Below, one piece after another: positions 2,441-22,773 of a DNA stretch of 22,773 nucleotides (position 1 is its first letter; every line of letters starts with the position of its first letter). This DNA comes from a virus. The DNA is taken from the UHGV virus genome UHGV-0256221. One strand, given 5' to 3'. Made by a program: the position numbers and the translations under genes. The notes under the pieces are model-generated. The model saw only the letters and a program-made list of their open reading frames with translations, made no database searches and was not told the DNA's origin.

Positions 2441-3535
2441 TTAGTTCGCGTATTCCGGTTTCATGTCGTCGAGGGTGATACGGAACTGGTCATACAGTTC
2501 GTCGCCCAGGTGGCGGCGCGCCGCGGTAAGCGCTGATTCGGCCTTCGCAAACAGTTCTGCCGCGTCTGGTTCGCCGGGATTAGGCAGAGAGTTAATCGCC
2601 GCCTCGACTTTGTTGCGGTGATCCACCAGGTAGTAACGCTTAACGGCTTTGTTCTTCAGTTCGGTGAACAGTGCGGTACCCAGCAGCGCTTTCTGAGATT
2701 CGATATCCGCACGGATGGCTTTGGCCTGGTCGACGGAGCTGGCAGCTTCAATGCGATCACGAAGTTCGCCGGCTACATTGTCCGCGTTTGTTACCGATTG
2801 CTGATCGCAGCTGGCTGTAGTCACCGTCTCCCCAGTAATTTCGGTAACGCTCATTCGCTGTGGCGCTGGATTGATTTCCCGCTCTGGCTTGTCCTCAATC
2901 TCATCAGCGCTGTAAACGCCAAGAATTACATCTGGGCAATACAGTCGCGCCCAGCGCTTGACTGCGAGATATGCGAGTTGTTGACGGGGATCACTTGCCC
3001 AAAGTGTTGAGTTACGGACCTGAGCCTGAGATAGCATGAGCACCAACTCGCGTGGTTCATCCTCACCTTTCATAGTTGCCCATACTCGAATCCCAACGCC
3101 TGCTTCATCCTTTAAATCCCAGCCAGGGGCGATGTATTCATTCCCTTTGCCGCTGGTTTTCTTAATGAAGCGTCCAACGATATTTTCCCATTTCCCAAAC
3201 CAGTCATAATGAATACGGTCTTTCGTTGGGGACATGTTGGTAATAACCGCGTTGACCAACTGAGCCTCATACCCTAGGACTCCGCTATTGCCTACAATAT
3301 GAGTCTTCTGCGCGACTGCGAACGGGTCCATTCCCCAGCGGGCTGCCTGCATAACTACGGCCATACATGCGTCAGGCTTCTCGCGGAAATGACTCGGAAC
3401 GAATGCGCCGCTATTTGCCATCACGACTGATAATGTGCGCAGGCGGTCAAATAACTCGCCATTTGTTAAAATGGAGATGTTGTCGATCATTTGCGTCTTG
3501 TTTTCTGTGGTCGAAATTGCTGTAGACATGTTCAT
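2441..3535 (-). CDS. recT: RecT-family single-strand annealing recombinase
   Basis: 364 aa, recognised as RecT-like; immediately downstream of the recE-like gene with a 6-bp gap, as in Rac recE-recT. Confidence 0.8.
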   Translation of the reverse strand: MNMSTAISTTENKTQMIDNISILTNGELFDRLRTLSVVMANSGAFVPSHFREKPDACMAVVMQAARWGMDPFAVAQKTHIVGNSGVLGYEAQLVNAVITNMSPTKDRIHYDWFGKWENIVGRFIKKTSGKGNEYIAPGWDLKDEAGVGIRVWATMKGEDEPRELVLMLSQAQVRNSTLWASDPRQQLAYLAVKRWARLYCPDVILGVYSADEIEDKPEREINPAPQRMSVTEITGETVTTASCDQQSVTNADNVAGELRDRIEAASSVDQAKAIRADIESQKALLGTALFTELKNKAVKRYYLVDHRNKVEAAINSLPNPGEPDAAELFAKAESALTAARRHLGDELYDQFRITLDDMKPEYAN

Positions 3536-3541
3536 TTCCCC

Positions 3542-6500
3542 TTATGCCAAACGCAGCGCTTCAAGGCGGCGCATATCGAAATCATTCAGTTCGTCGGTGT
3601 AGTCGGCGGTGATCGGCGCTGGCCACTCACCCGTATCAAATCCGGTTGCGATGGCTCGCATGGCATTTCGATACTCGAGCATGCCCAGTTCCAGCAGTTC
3701 AGTGGACGCTTCAATAATGGCGATCCAGTGGTAGTTCTCGTCTTTGTTGACGAAAATCCAGAAGAACTGGTCAAGCGCTGCCGTCTCGCAGTACATGGCC
3801 GCGCTTAGGTGATAATCGCGGTCGATGATTTCGCGGTGTAACTTGGCGCGCAGACCTTCCTGTTTGATGTTCCACATGCTGATGGTTTTCAGGTCGGCAC
3901 CGATGCGCACACCGTCCAGGTCGATTTCCAGATCCGGACGTACACGGACTTCCAGCCCGGTTTCGTCGTCGAACCCGAAATAACTCACTTCTACAGCGCG
4001 GTTCGGGTGCGTTAGCAGCTTGCCGGCGGTCGGGTGCTGGAGCAGAGCTTTCTGGATATTCAGCGCGGTACTTAGCTGCTGGCGGGTGACCAGTACTTTT
4101 CCTTCAGGATTCTCGCGCCATGCATCGATAAGTTCGTCGGCAAATACAGCACCCGGGTTTACTGCCTTCACGGCCTGAATCAGATCTGCCTTCGTGCCGG
4201 ATACTTTCAGTGGCTGCGGCTTCTGCGCTTCCTGCGCGACCAGATCAGGATTGATGATTGCCAGTTGCTCAAGCAGCGAGTCGCGGCTACCGCTGGTTTT
4301 TACCGGCGCAGGCTTATTGGATTCTTCCTCTACCAAATCGGCGTTGATGACCGCCAGTTGCTCCAACAGCGCGTCGCGGCTGCCGCTGGTTTTCACTTGA
4401 GCGGGCAGGGTAGCGTTGTACTCTTTGATGCATGCTTTCATGGCAGCAGCAGTGAAGTTTTTTTCGTCGCCAACAATCCGCTTAAACTCAGCAGGCAATT
4501 CGAGATACGCCAGACCGATCGCGTCTTTATCGCCGCCTAAAGGCACTTGAGCGGGCAGGGTAGCGTTGTGCGCTTCCAGTAGCGCTTTGATATCGTCAGC
4601 AGATAGCGGCGCTGGCAGGCTAGTGTTGTACTCTTCCAGTAACGCTTTGATATCTTCGACTGACAGCAGCGCCTGCAGGCTGGCATTGTATTCATCGATA
4701 AACGCGCGGATCGTTGCGGTTGTCGTGAATGCGCCTTCCGGGATTTCTGGCTCAACGCTGAATTCAGCATCCAGTTGCTCAGGTTGCAGCGCCAGTGCAT
4801 GTACCAGGTTCCCCATATCCAGAACCGGAGAGCGTTCCTTCGTGATGGTCTTCTCAACATGGCGCGCATTGAAGTACATCAGGCTCACGCGAGCATCTTT
4901 AACCTGGGTGCTGCTGATACCGTTGGCGGCGTGATATACCTCGTTTGGTAAACCTTCATAACGGCCAGGCTCGAAGAATGCCGGGTACTCGATGGCTGGT
5001 TCTGCCTGCAGGTCTTCCGGCTCGCTGGCTGTTTCCATCGGCACTAATTCCTGTGCTGTGTCGTCTGCCGGAATCGGCGCTTCAGTTGTCAGAGTTTCCT
5101 GCTTGTTGGTGTCATGCTCCTGCGTGTCCAGTTCTTCTTTCAAACCGGATTCCATCGCTGCATATGTTGCATCACCCATCACAGCACCGCAGTCCTGGCA
5201 ATGCCCGCCACCAATAGCGCCGCATCCGGTACACACGGTTTCCGTTACGGTATCTGCCTGCGAATCATCTTCCACAGTACCTTCGCCTGCTGGTAACGCA
5301 GCGCTATTTTCGGCTTGGGGTTGCTCAGTCGTTTCCATCTGGCCATTGTTGGTGGTCTCGCTTTTGTTGCCGTAAAGTTTTGAGTTCGCCATCAAACCCT
5401 CAACCGAAAAGATGCCACCGCCAACGTTGGTGACTTCAGGCTGTTTAGTAGATGTCAGGTCTTCGCGCACCCACTTCGGATCTTCCGGGTCGCTGATTCC
5501 ATCAACAAATTCCCCGCGCTCCGCTGCGAGTGTGTCACTGATTTCCTTATCCCAGCTTTGTGCAGGGTTATGGCGAGCAGCCTTCAATGTTTCATCAGAA
5601 GGTTTTTCGTGGTTGCTTTCTGTCAGGTTAGCGTTGATGTATCCACTGAGACGGCCGGGATACTGGTAATGCTCTGGGTGGCACTCCCTGATCAGCGCGA
5701 AAATGGCTGCGCGGGAGTAATCGAGTATTCCGGCACGTTTGCGAAGAGCTGCTGACCATTCTTTGAAAGGGCTTTCTTTTTTGCTGACGATCTCTTTCGC
5801 CCGACGATAAACACCACCAGGAATGTCGTAGATGTTAAAGTCCATCGGTAGTGTGGCGAGTGCAATTTCAATGTCTAATGAGTCCAGCGTGTGGGTTAAC
5901 TCAGGGTTACGGTCGGTTTTATTGCCGCCGCCTGCGTTTGTGCCTACGTCAGTTCGTGTAACCGACTGTTTATCCAGCGTCGCCTTATTATGTTTTGCGA
6001 ACCACTTCGCCGTTACATCGTCGCGGGAAACGCGATCGCTCTGATGTGTATTGATCCATTCTGCAAAGAAGGTGATCAGGTCATTGAGCATCGGAGCTTT
6101 ACCGTCCACCGGCCAGATTGATTTTGTGGCCGTAAACAGGTCGGCCAGTGTTTCCGGGAACACGTGTTCAATAGGGCGAGTTTTGAAATCACGCGCGGAC
6201 AGCAATACGTTCTGTGCGTATGTTTCATCCATATCCAGCTCTACACGCGTAATCTCCTGCAACTGCTCAGTAGTCAGCGTATCGAAAAGACCGTACAGCC
6301 AGGTGCCGAGTACTTTTTTCTCATATGGAAATTTGCCGTAGGCGAACAGGTCAACAGCTTCCTTCTCTGTTTCTTGCGTAGTGGTTACTGCGTGCGCATC
6401 GGTAGACGCGGTGGCATCGGCGGCAGCCGCTGGTGTGCTTTCATTGTGAAATGCATCATCAGGCTTGCTGCCTGGCTTCAGTTGCCAGGTGCGCATGTCT

Positions 6501-19015: not shown

Positions 19016-19221
19016 TGGGGATGAAGCATACCTGGTTCCATCATACCGATTGCACAACCCAGCAGGCCGAAGAGCTCATGGAGGAATACCAGCGCCGCGG
19101 CGTAATGGTAGAGCGCAGCCTGAACTCCGATTATCTCACCTGGACCGTCAGCGCCCGGCTTCCTGAAGGCAATAAACCACCGCGTATAAATCGCCAGTGG
19201 CAAAACCGGATATGGGGGTGA
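19012..19221 (+). CDS. Hypothetical small protein
   Basis: 69-aa ORF coupled to neighbours. Confidence 0.4.
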   Translation: MMGMKHTWFHHTDCTTQQAEELMEEYQRRGVMVERSLNSDYLTWTVSARLPEGNKPPRINRQWQNRIWG

Positions 19222-19505
19222 GCGTGGCTATTTATCGCAGCAAGAAATGGCTCGCCGCCGTCGGGCAGATCGAACGTTGTGTTCTTTGTGGCGCATGGGG
19301 AACGCAGGTGGCACACCGGAACGAAGGGAAAGGCATGGGATTAAAAACTGATGACTGTGCGACAGCTGCGCTCTGCGTTTGCTGTCATGACAGCATTGAT
19401 AACGGGAATAAGCTGAACAGGGAAGAGCGCCGGCAGCTTATGGATCGCGCGATTGTTCTGACAGTGATTGAAGTTGCCCGCCGCGGGCTGGTGGTGCCCG
19501 CATGA
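19197..19505 (+). CDS. Cys/His-rich nin-region protein (possible zinc-binding)
   Basis: ORF has GTG start; alternative ATG at 19212 (MGVSVAIYRS); CVLCG ... CVCCHD; stop overlaps the rusA start. Confidence 0.45.
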   Translation: MAKPDMGVSVAIYRSKKWLAAVGQIERCVLCGAWGTQVAHRNEGKGMGLKTDDCATAALCVCCHDSIDNGNKLNREERRQLMDRAIVLTVIEVARRGLVVPA

Positions 19506-19858
19506 AAATTTACGAAATTACGCCGATTGGCAAGCCCAGGATGACTCAGCGTGACCGATGGCATAAACGGCCAGCAACGGCAGCGTACTGGGCTTACAAA
19601 GAACAGGTCAGGTTGCTCGGCATCCGTCTGCCTGAGTCCGGATATCACGTCACGTTCGTTATCCCCATGCCAAAGAGCTGGAGTAAGGCAAAGCGGGCGC
19701 AATATGTCGGCAAGCCACATCGACAAAAGCCGGACAAAGACAACCTGGAAAAAGCTTTGCTGGATGCAGTGTTTGACGAGGATAGCCATGTCTGGGACGG
19801 ACGGGTTACCAAAATCTGGGGAGAAACCGGGCAAATCATTATTGAGGAGGCCAAATGA
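19502..19858 (+). CDS. rusA: RusA-family Holliday junction resolvase
   Basis: 118 aa; RusA-like acidic motif (KPDKDNLEKALLDAVFDEDSHVWD); located just before Q. Confidence 0.8.
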   Translation: MKIYEITPIGKPRMTQRDRWHKRPATAAYWAYKEQVRLLGIRLPESGYHVTFVIPMPKSWSKAKRAQYVGKPHRQKPDKDNLEKALLDAVFDEDSHVWDGRVTKIWGETGQIIIEEAK

Positions 19859-19992
19859 AGCCAGAAACGCTTGAGATACTCCGCGCGCGCTGGCAGCGCC
19901 TTCGCATTTATCGCTACCGGGGATCGGTGCTGGTGGATTATCGCATTCTTCGTAATTTTGTTCGTATCTATCATTCAGCAGGAGCAGCCTAA
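19855..19992 (+). CDS. Possible 45-aa Arg-rich protein between rusA and Q
   Basis: Hand translation MKPETLEILRARWQRLRIYRYRGSVLVDYRILRNFVRIYHSAGAA; GAGGAGG RBS 4 nt upstream; start overlaps rusA stop, stop overlaps Q start. Confidence 0.3.
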   Translation: MKPETLEILRARWQRLRIYRYRGSVLVDYRILRNFVRIYHSAGAA

Positions 19993-20774
19993 TGAACCTC
20001 GAAAACACCGTGAAATATCACTTCGCCAAGTCGACGCTTATTAGCGACTCTCCGCGCGCCACTGGTTCAGATTCGCTGACCGGGACGGATGTCATGGCGG
20101 CCATGGGCATGACCCAGGAACGTGCCGCCATGGGATACAGTGCCTTCCTCGGCAAGATGGGCATAAGCAATAACGACCGGGATCGGGCGATCGGTCTGCT
20201 GGCTGAGTACGCGATGACAAAATGCGATAAAGTAGCCGCGCTGCGCAAGCTCGCCGACGGGGTTAGGCCGTTGGTTATACATCAGCTTGCTACCTTCGCT
20301 TTTGAGGACTATTCCCGCAGTGCCGCCAGCGTGAAGCAGTGCGATTGCTGCTCTGGCGTTGGATTCATTCAGGCTGATGTATTCACCAATAAATTCCGCA
20401 AGCCAGAAGGCAAAATGACAGTGTCCGGAATGGTGAAGGTCAAAGAGTCTGTGAAGGTGCTCTGCAAAAAGTGCAATGGTGCCGGAACCGTTAGCGCGGC
20501 ATGCAGTGATTGCCACGGGCGAGGAAAGGCAGTAAACCAAGACCTGACGGAAAAGCAGGGTATTCCTGTCCTGGCGGATTGTAAGCGCTGCGGCGGTCGC
20601 GGATATGAACGTATCCCATCAACTGAGGCCCACGCAGCTGTTTGCCAAATTACGGATGCTATCAGCCTGGATACGTGGAAGAAGTCTGTTAAACCGTTCT
20701 ATGATCAGCTGATTACGAAATTCGATATTGAAGAGGCATGGGCCGAAACACAGCTTAAGCAAATAACACGATAG
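19992..20774 (+). CDS. Putative late antiterminator Q (Cys-rich, four CxxCxGxG motifs)
   Basis: 260 aa between rusA and the late promoter/lysis module; CDCCSGVG, CKKCNGAG, CSDCHGRG, CKRCGGRG; call rests on position plus zinc motifs. Confidence 0.55.
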   Translation: MNLENTVKYHFAKSTLISDSPRATGSDSLTGTDVMAAMGMTQERAAMGYSAFLGKMGISNNDRDRAIGLLAEYAMTKCDKVAALRKLADGVRPLVIHQLATFAFEDYSRSAASVKQCDCCSGVGFIQADVFTNKFRKPEGKMTVSGMVKVKESVKVLCKKCNGAGTVSAACSDCHGRGKAVNQDLTEKQGIPVLADCKRCGGRGYERIPSTEAHAAVCQITDAISLDTWKKSVKPFYDQLITKFDIEEAWAETQLKQITR

Positions 20775-20810
20775 CGATTACGAAAATAGTCTGCGCTTTG
20801 ATTGCGGCTA

Positions 20811-20838
20811 TTTACTTTTCCCGAATCTGTGTTAATTT
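20811..20838 (+). promoter_or_regulatory. Candidate late promoter PR'
   Basis: TTTACT, 16 bp, TAATTT about 40 bp after the Q stop; weak match. Confidence 0.25.
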
Positions 20839-20869
20839 TATCCCAACGATGGGTTAATGCCTTCGTTTC

Positions 20870-20906
20870 AAGCCCTGCGGTTAACACCGTGGGGCTTTTG
20901 CGTTTC
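20870..20906 (+). terminator. Intrinsic terminator after the late promoter (tR'-like)
   Basis: AAGCCCTGCGG-TTAACA-CCGTGGGGCTT hairpin (two G-U pairs) followed by TTGCGTTTC. Confidence 0.5.
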
Positions 20907-21150
20907 TGGAGGGTAAGAAAATGCACCAGTAAACGGATAGACCGCAGCCGAAAGGCAAAGCAGCAGTCATGATGCTGCCCTGAGTCGCCATTGAGCGAGC
21001 CTGTGTAGCGATGGGTTAAGGTTCATGTATTAAAAATAGCTCCGGTAGAGCAGCGCGAACGCCAGACGCGCACCGGTTATAAGCGGCGATAGAGCGACAG
21101 CACCTCAAGGGCATGAGCGTGGCCACTCCGGGTAGTGGCAAAGAATTTAT

Positions 21151-21180
21151 AGCCTCGCTTATGCGGGGCTTTTCTATTTC
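21151..21180 (+). terminator. Second intrinsic terminator before the lysis genes
   Basis: AGCCTCGC-TTAT-GCGGGGCT hairpin followed by TTTTCTATTTC. Confidence 0.5.
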
Positions 21181-21288
21181 AGGCCTCACGGGAATCATCC
21201 GCTACGTGCTTTGTTGATAAATCCAGCCCGTGAAGCCTGACCCTTTTCAAACACACACAGCGCCATCCGAAAAATCGGAGGTGAGGCT

Positions 21289-21567
21289 ATGACCAGAATG
21301 AGCACCATTTACAGCAGACTTTCATATGGAACAGGCACCACGCTGACCGGCTGCGGTGTATCAGCGAAGGCATATGCCGAAACAGCTAAAACAGCAAAAG
21401 AGGTGTCCTGGATGTTGGCCGACAGAATTGCAGGGTTAAGCCTGAGCGACTGGGCAATTATTGTCGGTATCTCATGCACTGTTATCACCTGTGCAGTGAA
21501 CTGGTACTACAGGAAAAAGGAAAGGGAGGACCGGCTTAATGGCAATGTCACCAAAGCTGAAGAATAG
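21289..21567 (+). CDS. Pinholin (phage-21 S21-like)
   Basis: 92 aa; [32 protein letters not shown] resembles S21 (SPSQWAAIGVLGS...YFKIREDRR, from memory); GGAGGTGAG RBS; followed by a SAR endolysin. Confidence 0.6.
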
Positions 21568-22111
21568 TGTTATTGCAGCTATACCCGCTGGCGCTATTGC
21601 TATCGCTGCGGCGTTGATTACTGGCCCAACGGGTAATGATGGCCTTGAAGGTGTACGCTATCAGCCTTATCGGGATGTTGTTGGGGTGTGGACGGTATGC
21701 TACGGGCACACTGGCAGCGACGTCAAAATCGGGAAGACGTACACCGAGACAGAGTGTGCCATTCTGCTCACAAAAGATCTGAATACCATCGCACGTCAGA
21801 TTGACCCCTACATCAAGGTTCCGATCCCGGCAACAATGCGGGGTGCACTTTACTCATTCGCGTACAACGTCGGCGCTGGCAACTTCAAAACCTCCACGCT
21901 GTTACGCAAAATCAACCTGGGCGACACAAAAGGGGCTTGCGAACAATTACGGCGCTGGACATATGCCGGTGGCAAACAGTGGAAGGGTTTAATTACCCGG
22001 CGTGAGATTGAGCGTGAAGTTTGCCTGTGGGCAGAAAAACCTCAGGTTCTTGGTGATGGGCTCGGGCCGCTTAACCCTGGCATTCCGGTATCAGTTCCGG
22101 GGGTATTCTGA
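21539..22111 (+). CDS. SAR endolysin (GH24 lysozyme with N-terminal signal-anchor-release domain)
   Basis: Gly/Ala-rich N-terminal helix ([17 protein letters not shown]) then T4-lysozyme-type catalytic region ([25 protein letters not shown]). Confidence 0.8.
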
Positions 22112-22698
22112 TGAGCCCGAAACGCCAGATTATTGTTGGGTTGCTGCTGGTGGTCGTCGCATTCATCGCCGGCAGTGTATGGAGCAGTCGCGGGTGGGAA
22201 AAAAAGTGGGCGGAACGTGACAGCGTTGAATCATCGCAAACAGCGAACGCGCAGACCGCCGCCCGCATGATTGAGCAAGGGCGAGCCGCTGCCCGTGAAG
22301 AGGCTGTGAAAGATGCACAACAACAAGCGGCAAAAGCTGCTGCCACTGCTGCTGGTCTGTCTGCCACTGTTAGCCAGCTGCGCACCGAAGCAACAAAACT
22401 TGCCATCCACCTGGATGCCGCAAAGCACACCGCAGATCTTGCCGCTACCGTCCGAAGCAAAACAACCGACACCAACGCAGGATTGCTTGCCGACATGCTC
22501 GGAGATATTGCAGCAGAAGCTAAACGATATGCTGGAATCGCTGACGAACGCTACCGGGCAGGAATGACGTGTGAGCGCGTTTACGACTCGGTGAGAGAGT
22601 CAAATAACGGGATCTGGCAAAAAGCGGGGACGAATCCCATAAGCGCTAACTTAAGGGTTGAACCATCTGAAGAATGCGACGCCTCGGTGCCTCGTTAA
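22111..22698 (+). CDS. Rz-like i-spanin
   Basis: N-terminal TM helix ([15 protein letters not shown]), Ala/Gln-rich coiled-coil periplasmic domain; start overlaps endolysin stop; Rz1-like ORF embedded. Confidence 0.6.
22313..22567 (+). CDS. Rz1-like o-spanin lipoprotein embedded in Rz
   Basis: Signal peptide with lipobox LLASC, Pro-rich mature region, fully inside the Rz ORF in another frame. Confidence 0.55.
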
Positions 22699-22773
22699 GA
22701 CGATGCCTCGCGTTCTTCAATTGCGTTTTGTAGGCTGTCAGGGATACTGTCCCACGAATGGCCACCTGTAAGC

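Follow-up and report, generated by a model that had tools for sequence, protein, structure and literature searches.

What does a virus carry between its late antiterminator gene Q and its holin gene, where about 500 bp hold two terminators and no convincing gene? The question is raised by positions 20775-21288 of the virus genome UHGV-0256221; the whole stretch of 22,773 nucleotides (nt) that was analysed is called here the window. We find that 20908-21140 is very probably a self-contained, non-coding structured RNA module on the + strand, lying as cargo between the first terminator, tR', and the second one. Judged by comparison, it belongs to a well-supported structured RNA family that is new to Rfam 15 and to the searchable literature, in which a minute open reading frame (mini-ORF) is fused, rather unusually, to a large fold. 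The module, about 235 nt long, has the following parts:

20908-20913, + strand: Shine-Dalgarno sequence (SD) GGAGGG, seven nt before the ATG
20921-20932, + strand: predicted mini-ORF ATG CAC CAG TAA (M-H-Q-stop), from the sequence and from the pattern of the family
20933-21140, + strand: structured RNA domain, from a leave-out profile hidden Markov model (HMM), pair counts on 77 sequences and G·U asymmetry
20947-20956 (GNRA loop), 20960-20978, 20985-20998 and 21000-21015, + strand: hairpins of the 5' half
21042-21076 (two-part stem, loop AACGCCAGA), 21083-21098, 21104-21117 (loop AGGGCA) and 21122-21139, + strand: hairpins of the 3' half

A family of modules with unrelated flanks

Comparative sequence analysis demonstrated a family of such modules and showed, for its members, where they begin and end, how they pair, which strand is the RNA, which translation signals they carry and in which contexts, described below, they lie. 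In BLAST searches against phage records, the stretch between the two terminators was found to be 78-87% identical to unannotated DNA lying at unrelated places of phage genomes. Homologues were collected by two exact-word scans of IMG/VR, with words taken from two parts of the module, by one scan of the GTDB species genomes and by BLAST, and were checked with a profile HMM. This check upheld 221 loci from the viral, genome and first phage sets, together with another 8 in phages and plasmids. When the profile was built exclusively from members less than 80% identical to the window, it returned 20905-21140 as its sole match there (217.8 bits, E = 1.2e-66), over the full length of about 235 nt and with the mini-ORF at the 5' edge.

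The sequences on the two sides are unrelated from copy to copy: among 196 loci, the flanks fell into 86 upstream and 106 downstream sequence clusters. Thus, the edges of the module, from the Shine-Dalgarno sequence to the last hairpin, are sharp, and there is no conserved promoter of its own. Inside these edges, copies from different families of Enterobacterales, from Xenorhabdus to Escherichia, have almost the same loops and linkers.

The 69 loci confirmed in genomes come from Kluyvera, Citrobacter, Enterobacter, Morganella, Xenorhabdus, Providencia, Proteus, Pectobacterium, Rahnella, Edwardsiella, Erwinia, Tatumella and others, that is, all of them from Enterobacterales, apart from two contigs that look misassigned. 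Copies of enterobacterial type were seen on the Firmicutes-assigned contigs L273 (Vagococcus sp.) and L300 (a metagenome-assembled genome of Bacillales), where contamination or misbinning is likely. Among complete E. coli genomes the module was present in 121 out of 5426 (about 2%), and it was never annotated there.

The fold and its strand

Fold prediction, which the preliminary description of this DNA had named as a check on the whole segment, succeeded for both terminators, which beat their shuffles, and failed for the module, whose single-sequence fold was uninformative (z = -0.9); the structure of the latter is therefore visible only by comparison. Compensatory changes were already present in an RNAalifold analysis of 45 sequences. 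The model used for counting (12 helices and 47 pairs, from RNAalifold plus helices added manually) was scored on 77 sequences, from which it was itself partly derived, and compared with slid controls, in which each 3' partner was moved by 1-3 columns. Standard pairs were formed in 91.6% of the cells, against 27-39% in the slid controls, with lower values for helices 4-6, since the middle of the alignment mixes three variant sub-modules. Changes on both sides were found in 35 of the 47 pairs (15-23 in the slid controls), the cells with such double changes were 228 (40-78), and the covariation score was 0.264, compared to 0.055 or less in the controls; not one of 500 shuffles attained any of the observed pairing or covariation values. 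The stem 21053-21057/21067-21071, for example, occurs as GCGCG/CGCGC, UCAGG/CCUGA, GUUAG/CUAAC, GAACG/CGUUU and CGUGA/UCACG. As for the strand, G·U exceeds A·C by 270 to 63 in the paired cells, which identifies the RNA as the + strand, that of late transcription.

Variation is found at the periphery, where the hairpin with the GNRA loop may be extended or absent, one sub-type has an extra hairpin, and a hairpin is replaced in the sub-type of phage phiKO2; a pattern of this kind is typical of functional RNAs. A 3-bp pseudoknot of 21007-21009 with 21039-21041 is possible. A long-range closing helix suggested by RNAalifold, of module positions 30-32 with 215-217, stays tentative: it has a lone variable pair, without significant covariation, and a local hairpin competes for its bases. 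Several copies have an extra 3' hairpin, framed by CATTACA ... GATAAT and without a U tract (locus L080, about 6255-6300; locus L005, about 2735-2790), and this may be an optional further module.

A mini-ORF at the 5' edge

In the window, a well-spaced Shine-Dalgarno sequence, a start codon, a few codons and an in-frame stop form together what is known as a minigene or start-stop ORF. The same pattern was found throughout the family, with the start codon at the same model position in 168 of 168 distinct 5' ends (ATG in 157, TTG in 7, ATA in 2, ATC and GTG in 1 each). Counting the start, there is one sense codon in 23 of these ends, two in 33, three in 105, six in 5, and 16 or 17 in 2. The median energy of the duplex between SD and anti-SD is -8.7 kcal/mol, compared to -1.7 in random windows of the same loci. 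The encoded peptide is not conserved (MHQ, MVH, MKQ, MKH, M alone and others), and the usual TAA three codons in is often CAA where an earlier stop is present. These substitutions fit a selection that would act on initiation and prompt termination, and not on the peptide or on pairing; the alternative starts, together with a stop that is kept while the peptide varies, support the predicted translation of the mini-ORF. Between the stop and the first helix there are, moreover, 1-8 nt, so that a ribosome standing on the stop would, judging from footprint sizes, cover the first hairpins.

A strong Shine-Dalgarno sequence, a start, 1-3 codons and a stop in a leader are also the marks of known minigenes, such as those of lambda bar, of the LEE1 leader (PMC3262186) and of axe-txe (PMC8708949). 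Those are short and stand alone, whereas the mini-ORF of the module is the invariant 5' edge of a large fold. Peptidyl-tRNA drop-off cannot be the common function here, because 23 of the 168 variants are a bare start followed by a stop. The bar minigenes of lambda, too, lie in the PL operon.

Neither a known RNA nor a gene

No Rfam 15 family matched the window at gathering thresholds, and within 20600-21450 the matches up to E = 10 were at chance level (the best had 25 bits, against a gathering threshold of 55) and lay mostly on the terminators. A covariance-model search of 20775-21288, from which the preliminary description had hoped for an identification, accordingly named no family. The divergent copies of phiKO2 and of the Pantoea plasmid were likewise without an Rfam match. 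Other candidates were discarded singly: the models of STnc100, AgvB and AsxR (RF02076, RF02702, RF02703) had no match in the window, ARAGORN reported 0 tRNA or transfer-messenger RNA genes in it, and the PasA and PasD fragments of the Pas small RNAs (PMC8550237, supplement) were not recognised in the module when compared by eye. Inspection by eye gave no convincing resemblance to a hammerhead, C/D-box, k-turn, ops, boxB, group I or group II element either, and no paper in the searchable literature was found that contains the conserved words of the module (14-18-mers, in DNA and in RNA spelling) or describes such an element. In the Pantoea locus L321, a stretch at 3950-4019, just upstream of the copy and overlapping its start, had a weak partial match to the 3' part of STnc100 (E = 0.1, 17.5 bits, gathering threshold 47), which is probably due to chance.

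The large phage RNAs of the ROOL and GOLLD type are similar in having a complex, covariation-supported fold and no protein partner gene, and in being sometimes adjoined by tRNA genes, as the module is at 11 of 221 loci. Their length, on the other hand, is two to four times greater, most of them come from Firmicutes and metagenomes, and no conserved translation signals are known in them; Rfam includes them, and the module matches none. The association with tRNA genes is itself occasional, the 11 loci being all those with a tRNA within 1 kb downstream, the one side of the module on which tRNAs were seen.

As for proteins, the preliminary description had seen about 240 bp without a supported ORF, and this held true: there is no ORF longer than 60 aa between the two hairpins, and none is conserved. 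A protein-coding gene on either strand was rejected, since the indels are not multiples of three and no frame is kept. In fact, the lengths of the 77 members divide 27/25/25 modulo three, and each of the frames has stops in many members. The window has a minus-strand ORF of 60 aa at 21016-21198, whose start lies outside the module and is therefore missing from the other contexts, and in 53 of the 77 members one of the minus-strand frames is open through the 3' core. In Klebsiella phage RothC (locus L006), two minus-strand 'hypothetical proteins' at 2418-2754 were called over the module. The minus-strand ORFs of RothC and of the window look like annotation artefacts of the G+C-rich fold.

The slot between tR' and the second terminator

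The module lies in a late-gene region with these further features:

19992-20774, + strand: late antiterminator gene Q, 260 aa, from the ORF list and Pfam (PF03589, Antiterm, E = 2e-45)
20810-20838, + strand: predicted PR'-like late promoter, from the alignment to lambda PR'
20845-20858, + strand: probable transcript start and lambda-type initial transcribed region AACGATGGGTTAAT, from identity to lambda
20870-20908, + strand: first intrinsic terminator, tR', a 12-bp hairpin (20870-20897) plus TTTTGCGTTTC, from a terminator scan
21151-21180, + strand: second intrinsic terminator, an 8-bp hairpin (21151-21170) plus TTTTCTATTTC, from a terminator scan
21289-21567, + strand: class II (P21/HP1-type) holin, first gene of the lysis cassette, from the ORF list and Pfam (PF16080, PF04971)

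The stop codon of Q is 20772-20774. Besides PF03589, the protein has a DnaJ-type zinc-finger stretch, CxxCxGxG, which in Pfam is below threshold (28 bits against a cut-off of 32.7).

A PR'-like promoter had been suggested after Q, and its location agrees with the alignment to lambda, in which 20810-20865 matches PR' column for column, with a -35 hexamer at about 20810-20816 (TTTACT; TTGACT in lambda) and a -10 hexamer at about 20832-20838 (TTAATT; TAAATT in lambda); the spacer is 1 nt shorter, and the sequence between the hexamers is different. It is in the latter stretch that lambda Q binds, and the divergence suggests that the Q-binding element of the window may be a different one. The first 14 transcribed bases, AACGATGGGTTAAT, are identical to those directly downstream of PR' in lambda, where the initial transcribed region of PR' carries a sigma-dependent pause and the site of Q engagement. 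A consensus promoter scan gave nothing after Q and missed PR', which is thus a predicted promoter, placed and supported by its homology with lambda. From the same alignment, transcription would start near 20845 and the first hairpin would lie at about +26 to +53, in line with the earlier estimate of 25-60 nt.

Both hairpins that had been proposed as terminators, at 20870-20906 and at 21151-21180, were recovered by the terminator scan as G+C-rich hairpins followed by a U run, which is TTTTGCGTTTCT behind the hairpin 20870-20897. The first folds with -19.8 kcal/mol (z = -4.5, with 0 of 200 shuffles as good) and the second, which ends about 110 bp before the holin start as had been stated, with -14.7 kcal/mol (z = -5.2). 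Terminator-like sites were nine in 19500-22773, where shuffles gave 3.4 +/- 1.8. Neither U tract is long, each having four U and then an interruption, and this makes some readthrough at tR' plausible.

Which of the two is tR' was decided by comparison with relatives. The preliminary description had considered the first hairpin as a qut-proximal pause and the second as tR', and this part is not supported: the first hairpin, with GCGTTTCTGGAGG, recurs directly behind PR' in relatives with different types of Q, whatever the cargo, and hairpins of unlike sequence are found in relatives at the same place after PR'. In phage HK225 the same hairpin is annotated as a rho-independent terminator. We therefore regard the first hairpin, by its position and recurrence, as tR'. 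The 3' half of the second terminator, its U tract and the following holin leader are instead common to prophages with other cargo, and many E. coli prophages match the window from the 3' arm of this terminator onward and have other sequence upstream; the second hairpin, by the same kind of comparison, belongs with the downstream holin-leader module and closes the slot.

Since the flanks are shared and the contents differ among relatives, tR' and the second terminator bracket a cargo slot, of which the RNA module is the cargo in the window. HK225 has the same Q and the same holin, and there a reverse-strand ORF of 136 aa (locus L001, 1733-2143) replaces the module. In the E. coli prophage L320 the order is Q, PR', the tR' hairpin, GCGTTTCTGGAGG, a gene for a protein of 171 aa (350-865, + strand), the second terminator and the holin leader of the window. 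Neither of these alternative cargo ORFs had a Pfam match. The expectation of a cargo slot thus stood, with protein cargo in L320 and HK225, and that of tRNA or toxin genes did not, the cargo here being a structured RNA and no tRNA or toxin. When the joined flanks were compared with the 5426 E. coli genomes, no 'empty' junction of tR' and the second terminator was found, but only other cargo, and so there is no evidence of insertion by a mobile-element mechanism; terminal repeats were not seen at the module.

The suggestion of a small RNA between the terminators needs a similar revision: the RNA is an entity of its own, but instead of a simple small RNA it is a multi-helix module of about 235 nt with a mini-ORF. 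Nor is it the short RNA made from PR' to tR', since 20908-21140 lies entirely downstream of the first terminator; the layout of such a short RNA fits, in the alignment to lambda, a separate stretch of about 60 nt at 20845-20906.

Contexts of the module in phages, prophages and plasmids

Context statistics were obtained on 117 non-redundant contexts. An intrinsic terminator lies immediately upstream, in the tR' arrangement of the window, in 43 of them; a boxA match was found upstream in 14, at 51-61 nt in eight (nutL arrangement) and at 88-132 nt in six. Downstream, an intrinsic terminator is present in 25 contexts, and in 21 of these it starts 6-12 nt past the module. The proteins encoded upstream are Q families, cI-type repressors and endolysins, and those downstream are lysis proteins, N-like proteins, a TerB-like protein and terminase small subunits.

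The module precedes an N gene in mEp213, in Hafnia phage yong1 and in Stx2c phages. It is found past Q and before tRNA genes in RothC, between the lysis and terminase genes in vB_EcoS-733R5, 3' of the lysis genes in the telomere phage phiKO2, with an annotated terminator 13 nt further, and between the repressor region and rdgC in Edwardsiella phage EPP-1. Plasmid records with the module are 19, several of which are prophages or phage-plasmids. In MPF_I conjugative plasmids of Pantoea, Rahnella and Pectobacterium it lies 60-63 nt before the first type IVb pil gene, and the proteins encoded upstream are not related between the two plasmid types. The module and the annotated gene that follows it share their orientation in each of the 14 annotated records, 45 to about 190 nt apart, and a predicted gene start on the same strand is found within 600 nt in 95 of 103 distinct downstream flanks.

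Some individual loci deserve mention. Phage mEp213 (locus L002) has two different annotated N-type antiterminator genes, at 1330-1662 and 2815-3087, in one early-left operon, and its module is between them, just upstream of the second, HK620-like N. The Pectobacterium plasmid pLPa1526 (locus L322) has, in this order, traA, a gene for a NusG paralogue (PF02357, 2439-2948), a gene for a protein of 223 aa, the module and the pil genes. The copies in N leaders (loci L003 and L004, 2715-2765) have behind them a second conserved stretch, GGCTTTGGGGTGTGGTGAATGCGCAGGCTGATGCG, which may form a hairpin (GCGCA...TGCGC), and the similar GTTGTGGTGAATGCGGCCAGCGCACGC lies upstream of the Pantoea plasmid copy (L321, 3843-3875); these could be an associated motif or a feature of N leaders.

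A proposed leader acting in cis

What the module does can be approached from its position. The explanation that we find best as a whole, and to which we would give an even chance, is that of a cargo RNA module acting as a ribosome-loading, gene-independent leader in cis. We favour a leader because the module has no promoter of its own, is always oriented with the operon, lies at or near the heads of long operons of mobile elements, and is independent of the genes that follow; the mechanism in cis is put forward tentatively, with somewhat less than even confidence.

From the anatomy of the window, transcription would start at PR', near 20845. Without Q, most polymerases would stop at tR' and release an RNA of about 60 nt, and those leaking through would end at the second terminator with an RNA of about 335 nt, in which the module is included. 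In the presence of Q, both terminators would be read through and the module would become the 5' leader of the lysis mRNA. Its strong Shine-Dalgarno sequence and start codon would load a ribosome, terminating after 1-3 codons, and the occupancy of this ribosome might compete with the folding of the 5' hairpins, since no more than 1-8 nt separate the two elements, stop and first helix. Together with the compact multi-helix fold, a ribosome that is parked or cycles rapidly could thus form a 5' barrier, which would insulate the module from upstream RNA and shield the long downstream transcript of the mobile element from attack on the 5' side, be it scanning by RNase E or loading of Rho.

A broader formulation, possible but rather doubtful, has two branches. 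In the first, the module would represent a new class of structured RNAs that engage ribosomes and are plugged into the heads of antiterminated operons of Enterobacterales mobile elements: the start-stop or mini-ORF would bring a ribosome to a compact fold, by which it would be held or redirected, or else the fold would bind RNA polymerase, Rho or RNase E, and the operon would be protected or controlled throughout its length without a protein factor. In the second, it would be an RNA-only factor for host takeover or anti-defence, made in the first seconds of early and of late transcription.

Several points weigh against the leader in cis. Its mechanism is deduced, for every member of the family, from position and sequence features. 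A terminator behind the module, as in 25 of the 117 contexts including the window and phiKO2, would suit a discrete RNA gene and be strange for a leader, and in relatives the same slot holds protein-coding cargo. There is no fixed spacing to the next start codon, the median being 121 nt and the range 0-600 in the 103 flanks. An anti-Rho role looks redundant in phages, because polymerases modified by N or Q already resist Rho. The invariant loops and linkers exceed what a mere roadblock would seem to need; the conservation of two stretches is overstated, since the exact seed words of the scans lie inside the module. Its sporadic occurrence (121 of 5426 complete E. coli genomes) indicates that the module is dispensable. 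Finally, the closing helix proposed beside the stop codon lacks support from covariation, its positions 30 and 217 being G-C in 30 sequences, A-U in 14, G·U in 13 and A·C in 16.

A possible gene for a trans-acting RNA

The main rival, which we consider unlikely rather than improbable, is a gene for a trans-acting RNA, an 'RNA moron'. Termination at the second hairpin, or else cleavage by an RNase, would set the RNA free, its target would be something conserved in the host or in a rival phage, for example the ribosome, RNA polymerase, an RNase or a defence system, and the mini-ORF would bind ribosomes or stabilise the RNA. A slot bracketed by two terminators and used for protein cargo in relatives is what such a gene might be expected to occupy, and the terminator close behind the module in 25 of 117 contexts (at 6-12 nt in 21) would end it; in phiKO2, moreover, the copy is at the end of the lysis genes, 13 nt before the annotated terminator. 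Loops and linkers that are near-invariant while the flanks are unrelated suggest a specific conserved partner. The module is also always promoter-proximal and would be transcribed before N or Q act, being placed after nutL or after a tR' with four U. By contrast, 92 of the 117 contexts have no terminator behind the module, which lacks a promoter of its own, is always co-oriented with the next gene and lies in the plasmids about 60 nt from the first pil gene; no Rfam family of small RNAs matches it.

The resemblance to morons (stx, tRNAs and accessory genes) lies in the slot, which is the same, and in contents that are exchanged between phages with the same flanks. It ends with the nature of the cargo, which is an RNA fold and not a protein gene or a tRNA, and with the presence of the module also outside the classic moron slots.

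A precedent for RNAs of this origin is offered by lambda 6S RNA and StxS, both derived from PR'. The window has in common with them the layout at its start, a PR' that aligns with that of lambda and has the identical initial transcribed sequence, followed by an intrinsic terminator. Its RNA from PR' to tR' would be about 60 nt, against about 190 nt from start to hairpin in the lambda alignment; the distance from start to terminator in lambda is 194 nt. The module, unlike these RNAs, lies beyond tR', and it is found also in N leaders and in plasmids without PR'. In lysogens, PR' is constitutively active and its transcription is terminated at tR', and the RNA obtained as a by-product can be functional, as in the case of StxS, which acts in trans (PMC7547250). 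The longer StxS-L, of about 247 nt, corresponds to the +173 cleavage plus a 74-nt product (PMC7547250).

Antitermination and attenuation as improbable alternatives

It is improbable that the module is an RNA for processive antitermination or against Rho, similar to put of HK022, EAR of Bacillus or RARE of Salmonella, with the nascent module binding polymerase or Rho, so that transcription would continue through the long operon that follows. These are structured leader RNAs of long operons, downstream of a promoter and upstream of terminators, independent of the genes and borne by mobile elements, and in all this the module is like them. Its contexts are, in fact, long operons under a processive antiterminator (N in the early operons, Q in the late ones, and the pil operon behind the gene of a NusG paralogue), where it always lies downstream of the loading site, be it nutL or PR' with its pause region, and upstream of terminators, gene-independent and in cis by position. 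N and Q, though, co-occur with the module and already do that job, and leaky PR' transcripts made resistant in this way would express lysis genes in lysogens, against which the back-up terminator argues. The association with a NusG paralogue was not upheld, since it is limited to one plasmid type and none was found near any other copy examined. No HK022 record was among the BLAST matches of three divergent queries, which thus revealed no sequence relation to put. The latter consists of two stem-loops of about 70 nt, without a known translated element; EAR, too, has no known counterpart of the mini-ORF. With a length of about 235 nt, at least 8 helices, an obligatory mini-ORF, N or Q at its side and often a back-up terminator behind, the module differs from all of these.

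Still less probable is an attenuator or a riboswitch-like sensor, in which the fold or the translation of the mini-ORF would set termination at the second hairpin and thereby control the lysis genes. A large conserved fold with a terminator close behind it at constant spacing (in the window and in 24 other contexts) recalls such a device, and a leader mini-ORF beside the first helix recalls ribosome-mediated attenuation, but the terminator is present in only 21% of the contexts, the mini-ORF is about 220 nt away from it and its codons are not conserved. The downstream genes are unrelated (N, holin, terS, pilL, rdgC, TerB-like and tRNAs) and their distance is variable, so that neither the platform nor the class of gene downstream is consistent, and a Q-modified polymerase ignores terminators anyway. 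An antiterminator pairing of GCGUGGC, at the 3' end of the module, with the 5' arm of the second terminator was considered and given up, as, by eye, it is not kept in other members that bear a terminator.

The absence of any RNA function, with the stretch being a small protein gene, a DNA site or a recombination linker, deserves hardly any credence: the 60-aa minus-strand ORF of the window, the two of RothC and the minus-strand 3'-core frame open in 53 of 77 members would speak for it, and against it stand the compensatory changes in 35 of 47 pairs, the surplus of G·U on the + strand, indel lengths not divisible by three, a minus-strand ORF that starts outside the module, the conserved translation signals of the + strand, and sharp edges with 70-90% identity across distant hosts, unlike a passive linker.

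Significance

The early and late leaders of lambdoid phages are among the best-studied regulatory regions, yet an RNA fold of about 235 nt, strongly supported by covariation, has stood there unannotated. It exists in more than 220 copies, including those of phiKO2, of Stx2c phages and of conjugative plasmids from plant-associated enteric bacteria, and a frame of 1-3 codons welded to a large conserved fold is an unusual design. Its portability between unrelated operons makes the module of interest for the biology of phages and plasmids and, possibly, as an engineering part. For annotation, it is relevant that gene callers put spurious ORFs on the module, as in RothC.

Neighbouring genes

Past the second terminator, the holin begins after 110 bp and is followed by a lysozyme gene (PF00959) and then by the gene of a DUF2514 protein, which has the position of the annotated Rz of HK225. 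On the other side, upstream of rusA, an ORF of 102 aa at 19197-19505 has a Cys/His-rich motif and weak similarity to YbcO, a putative nuclease, and to DUF968.

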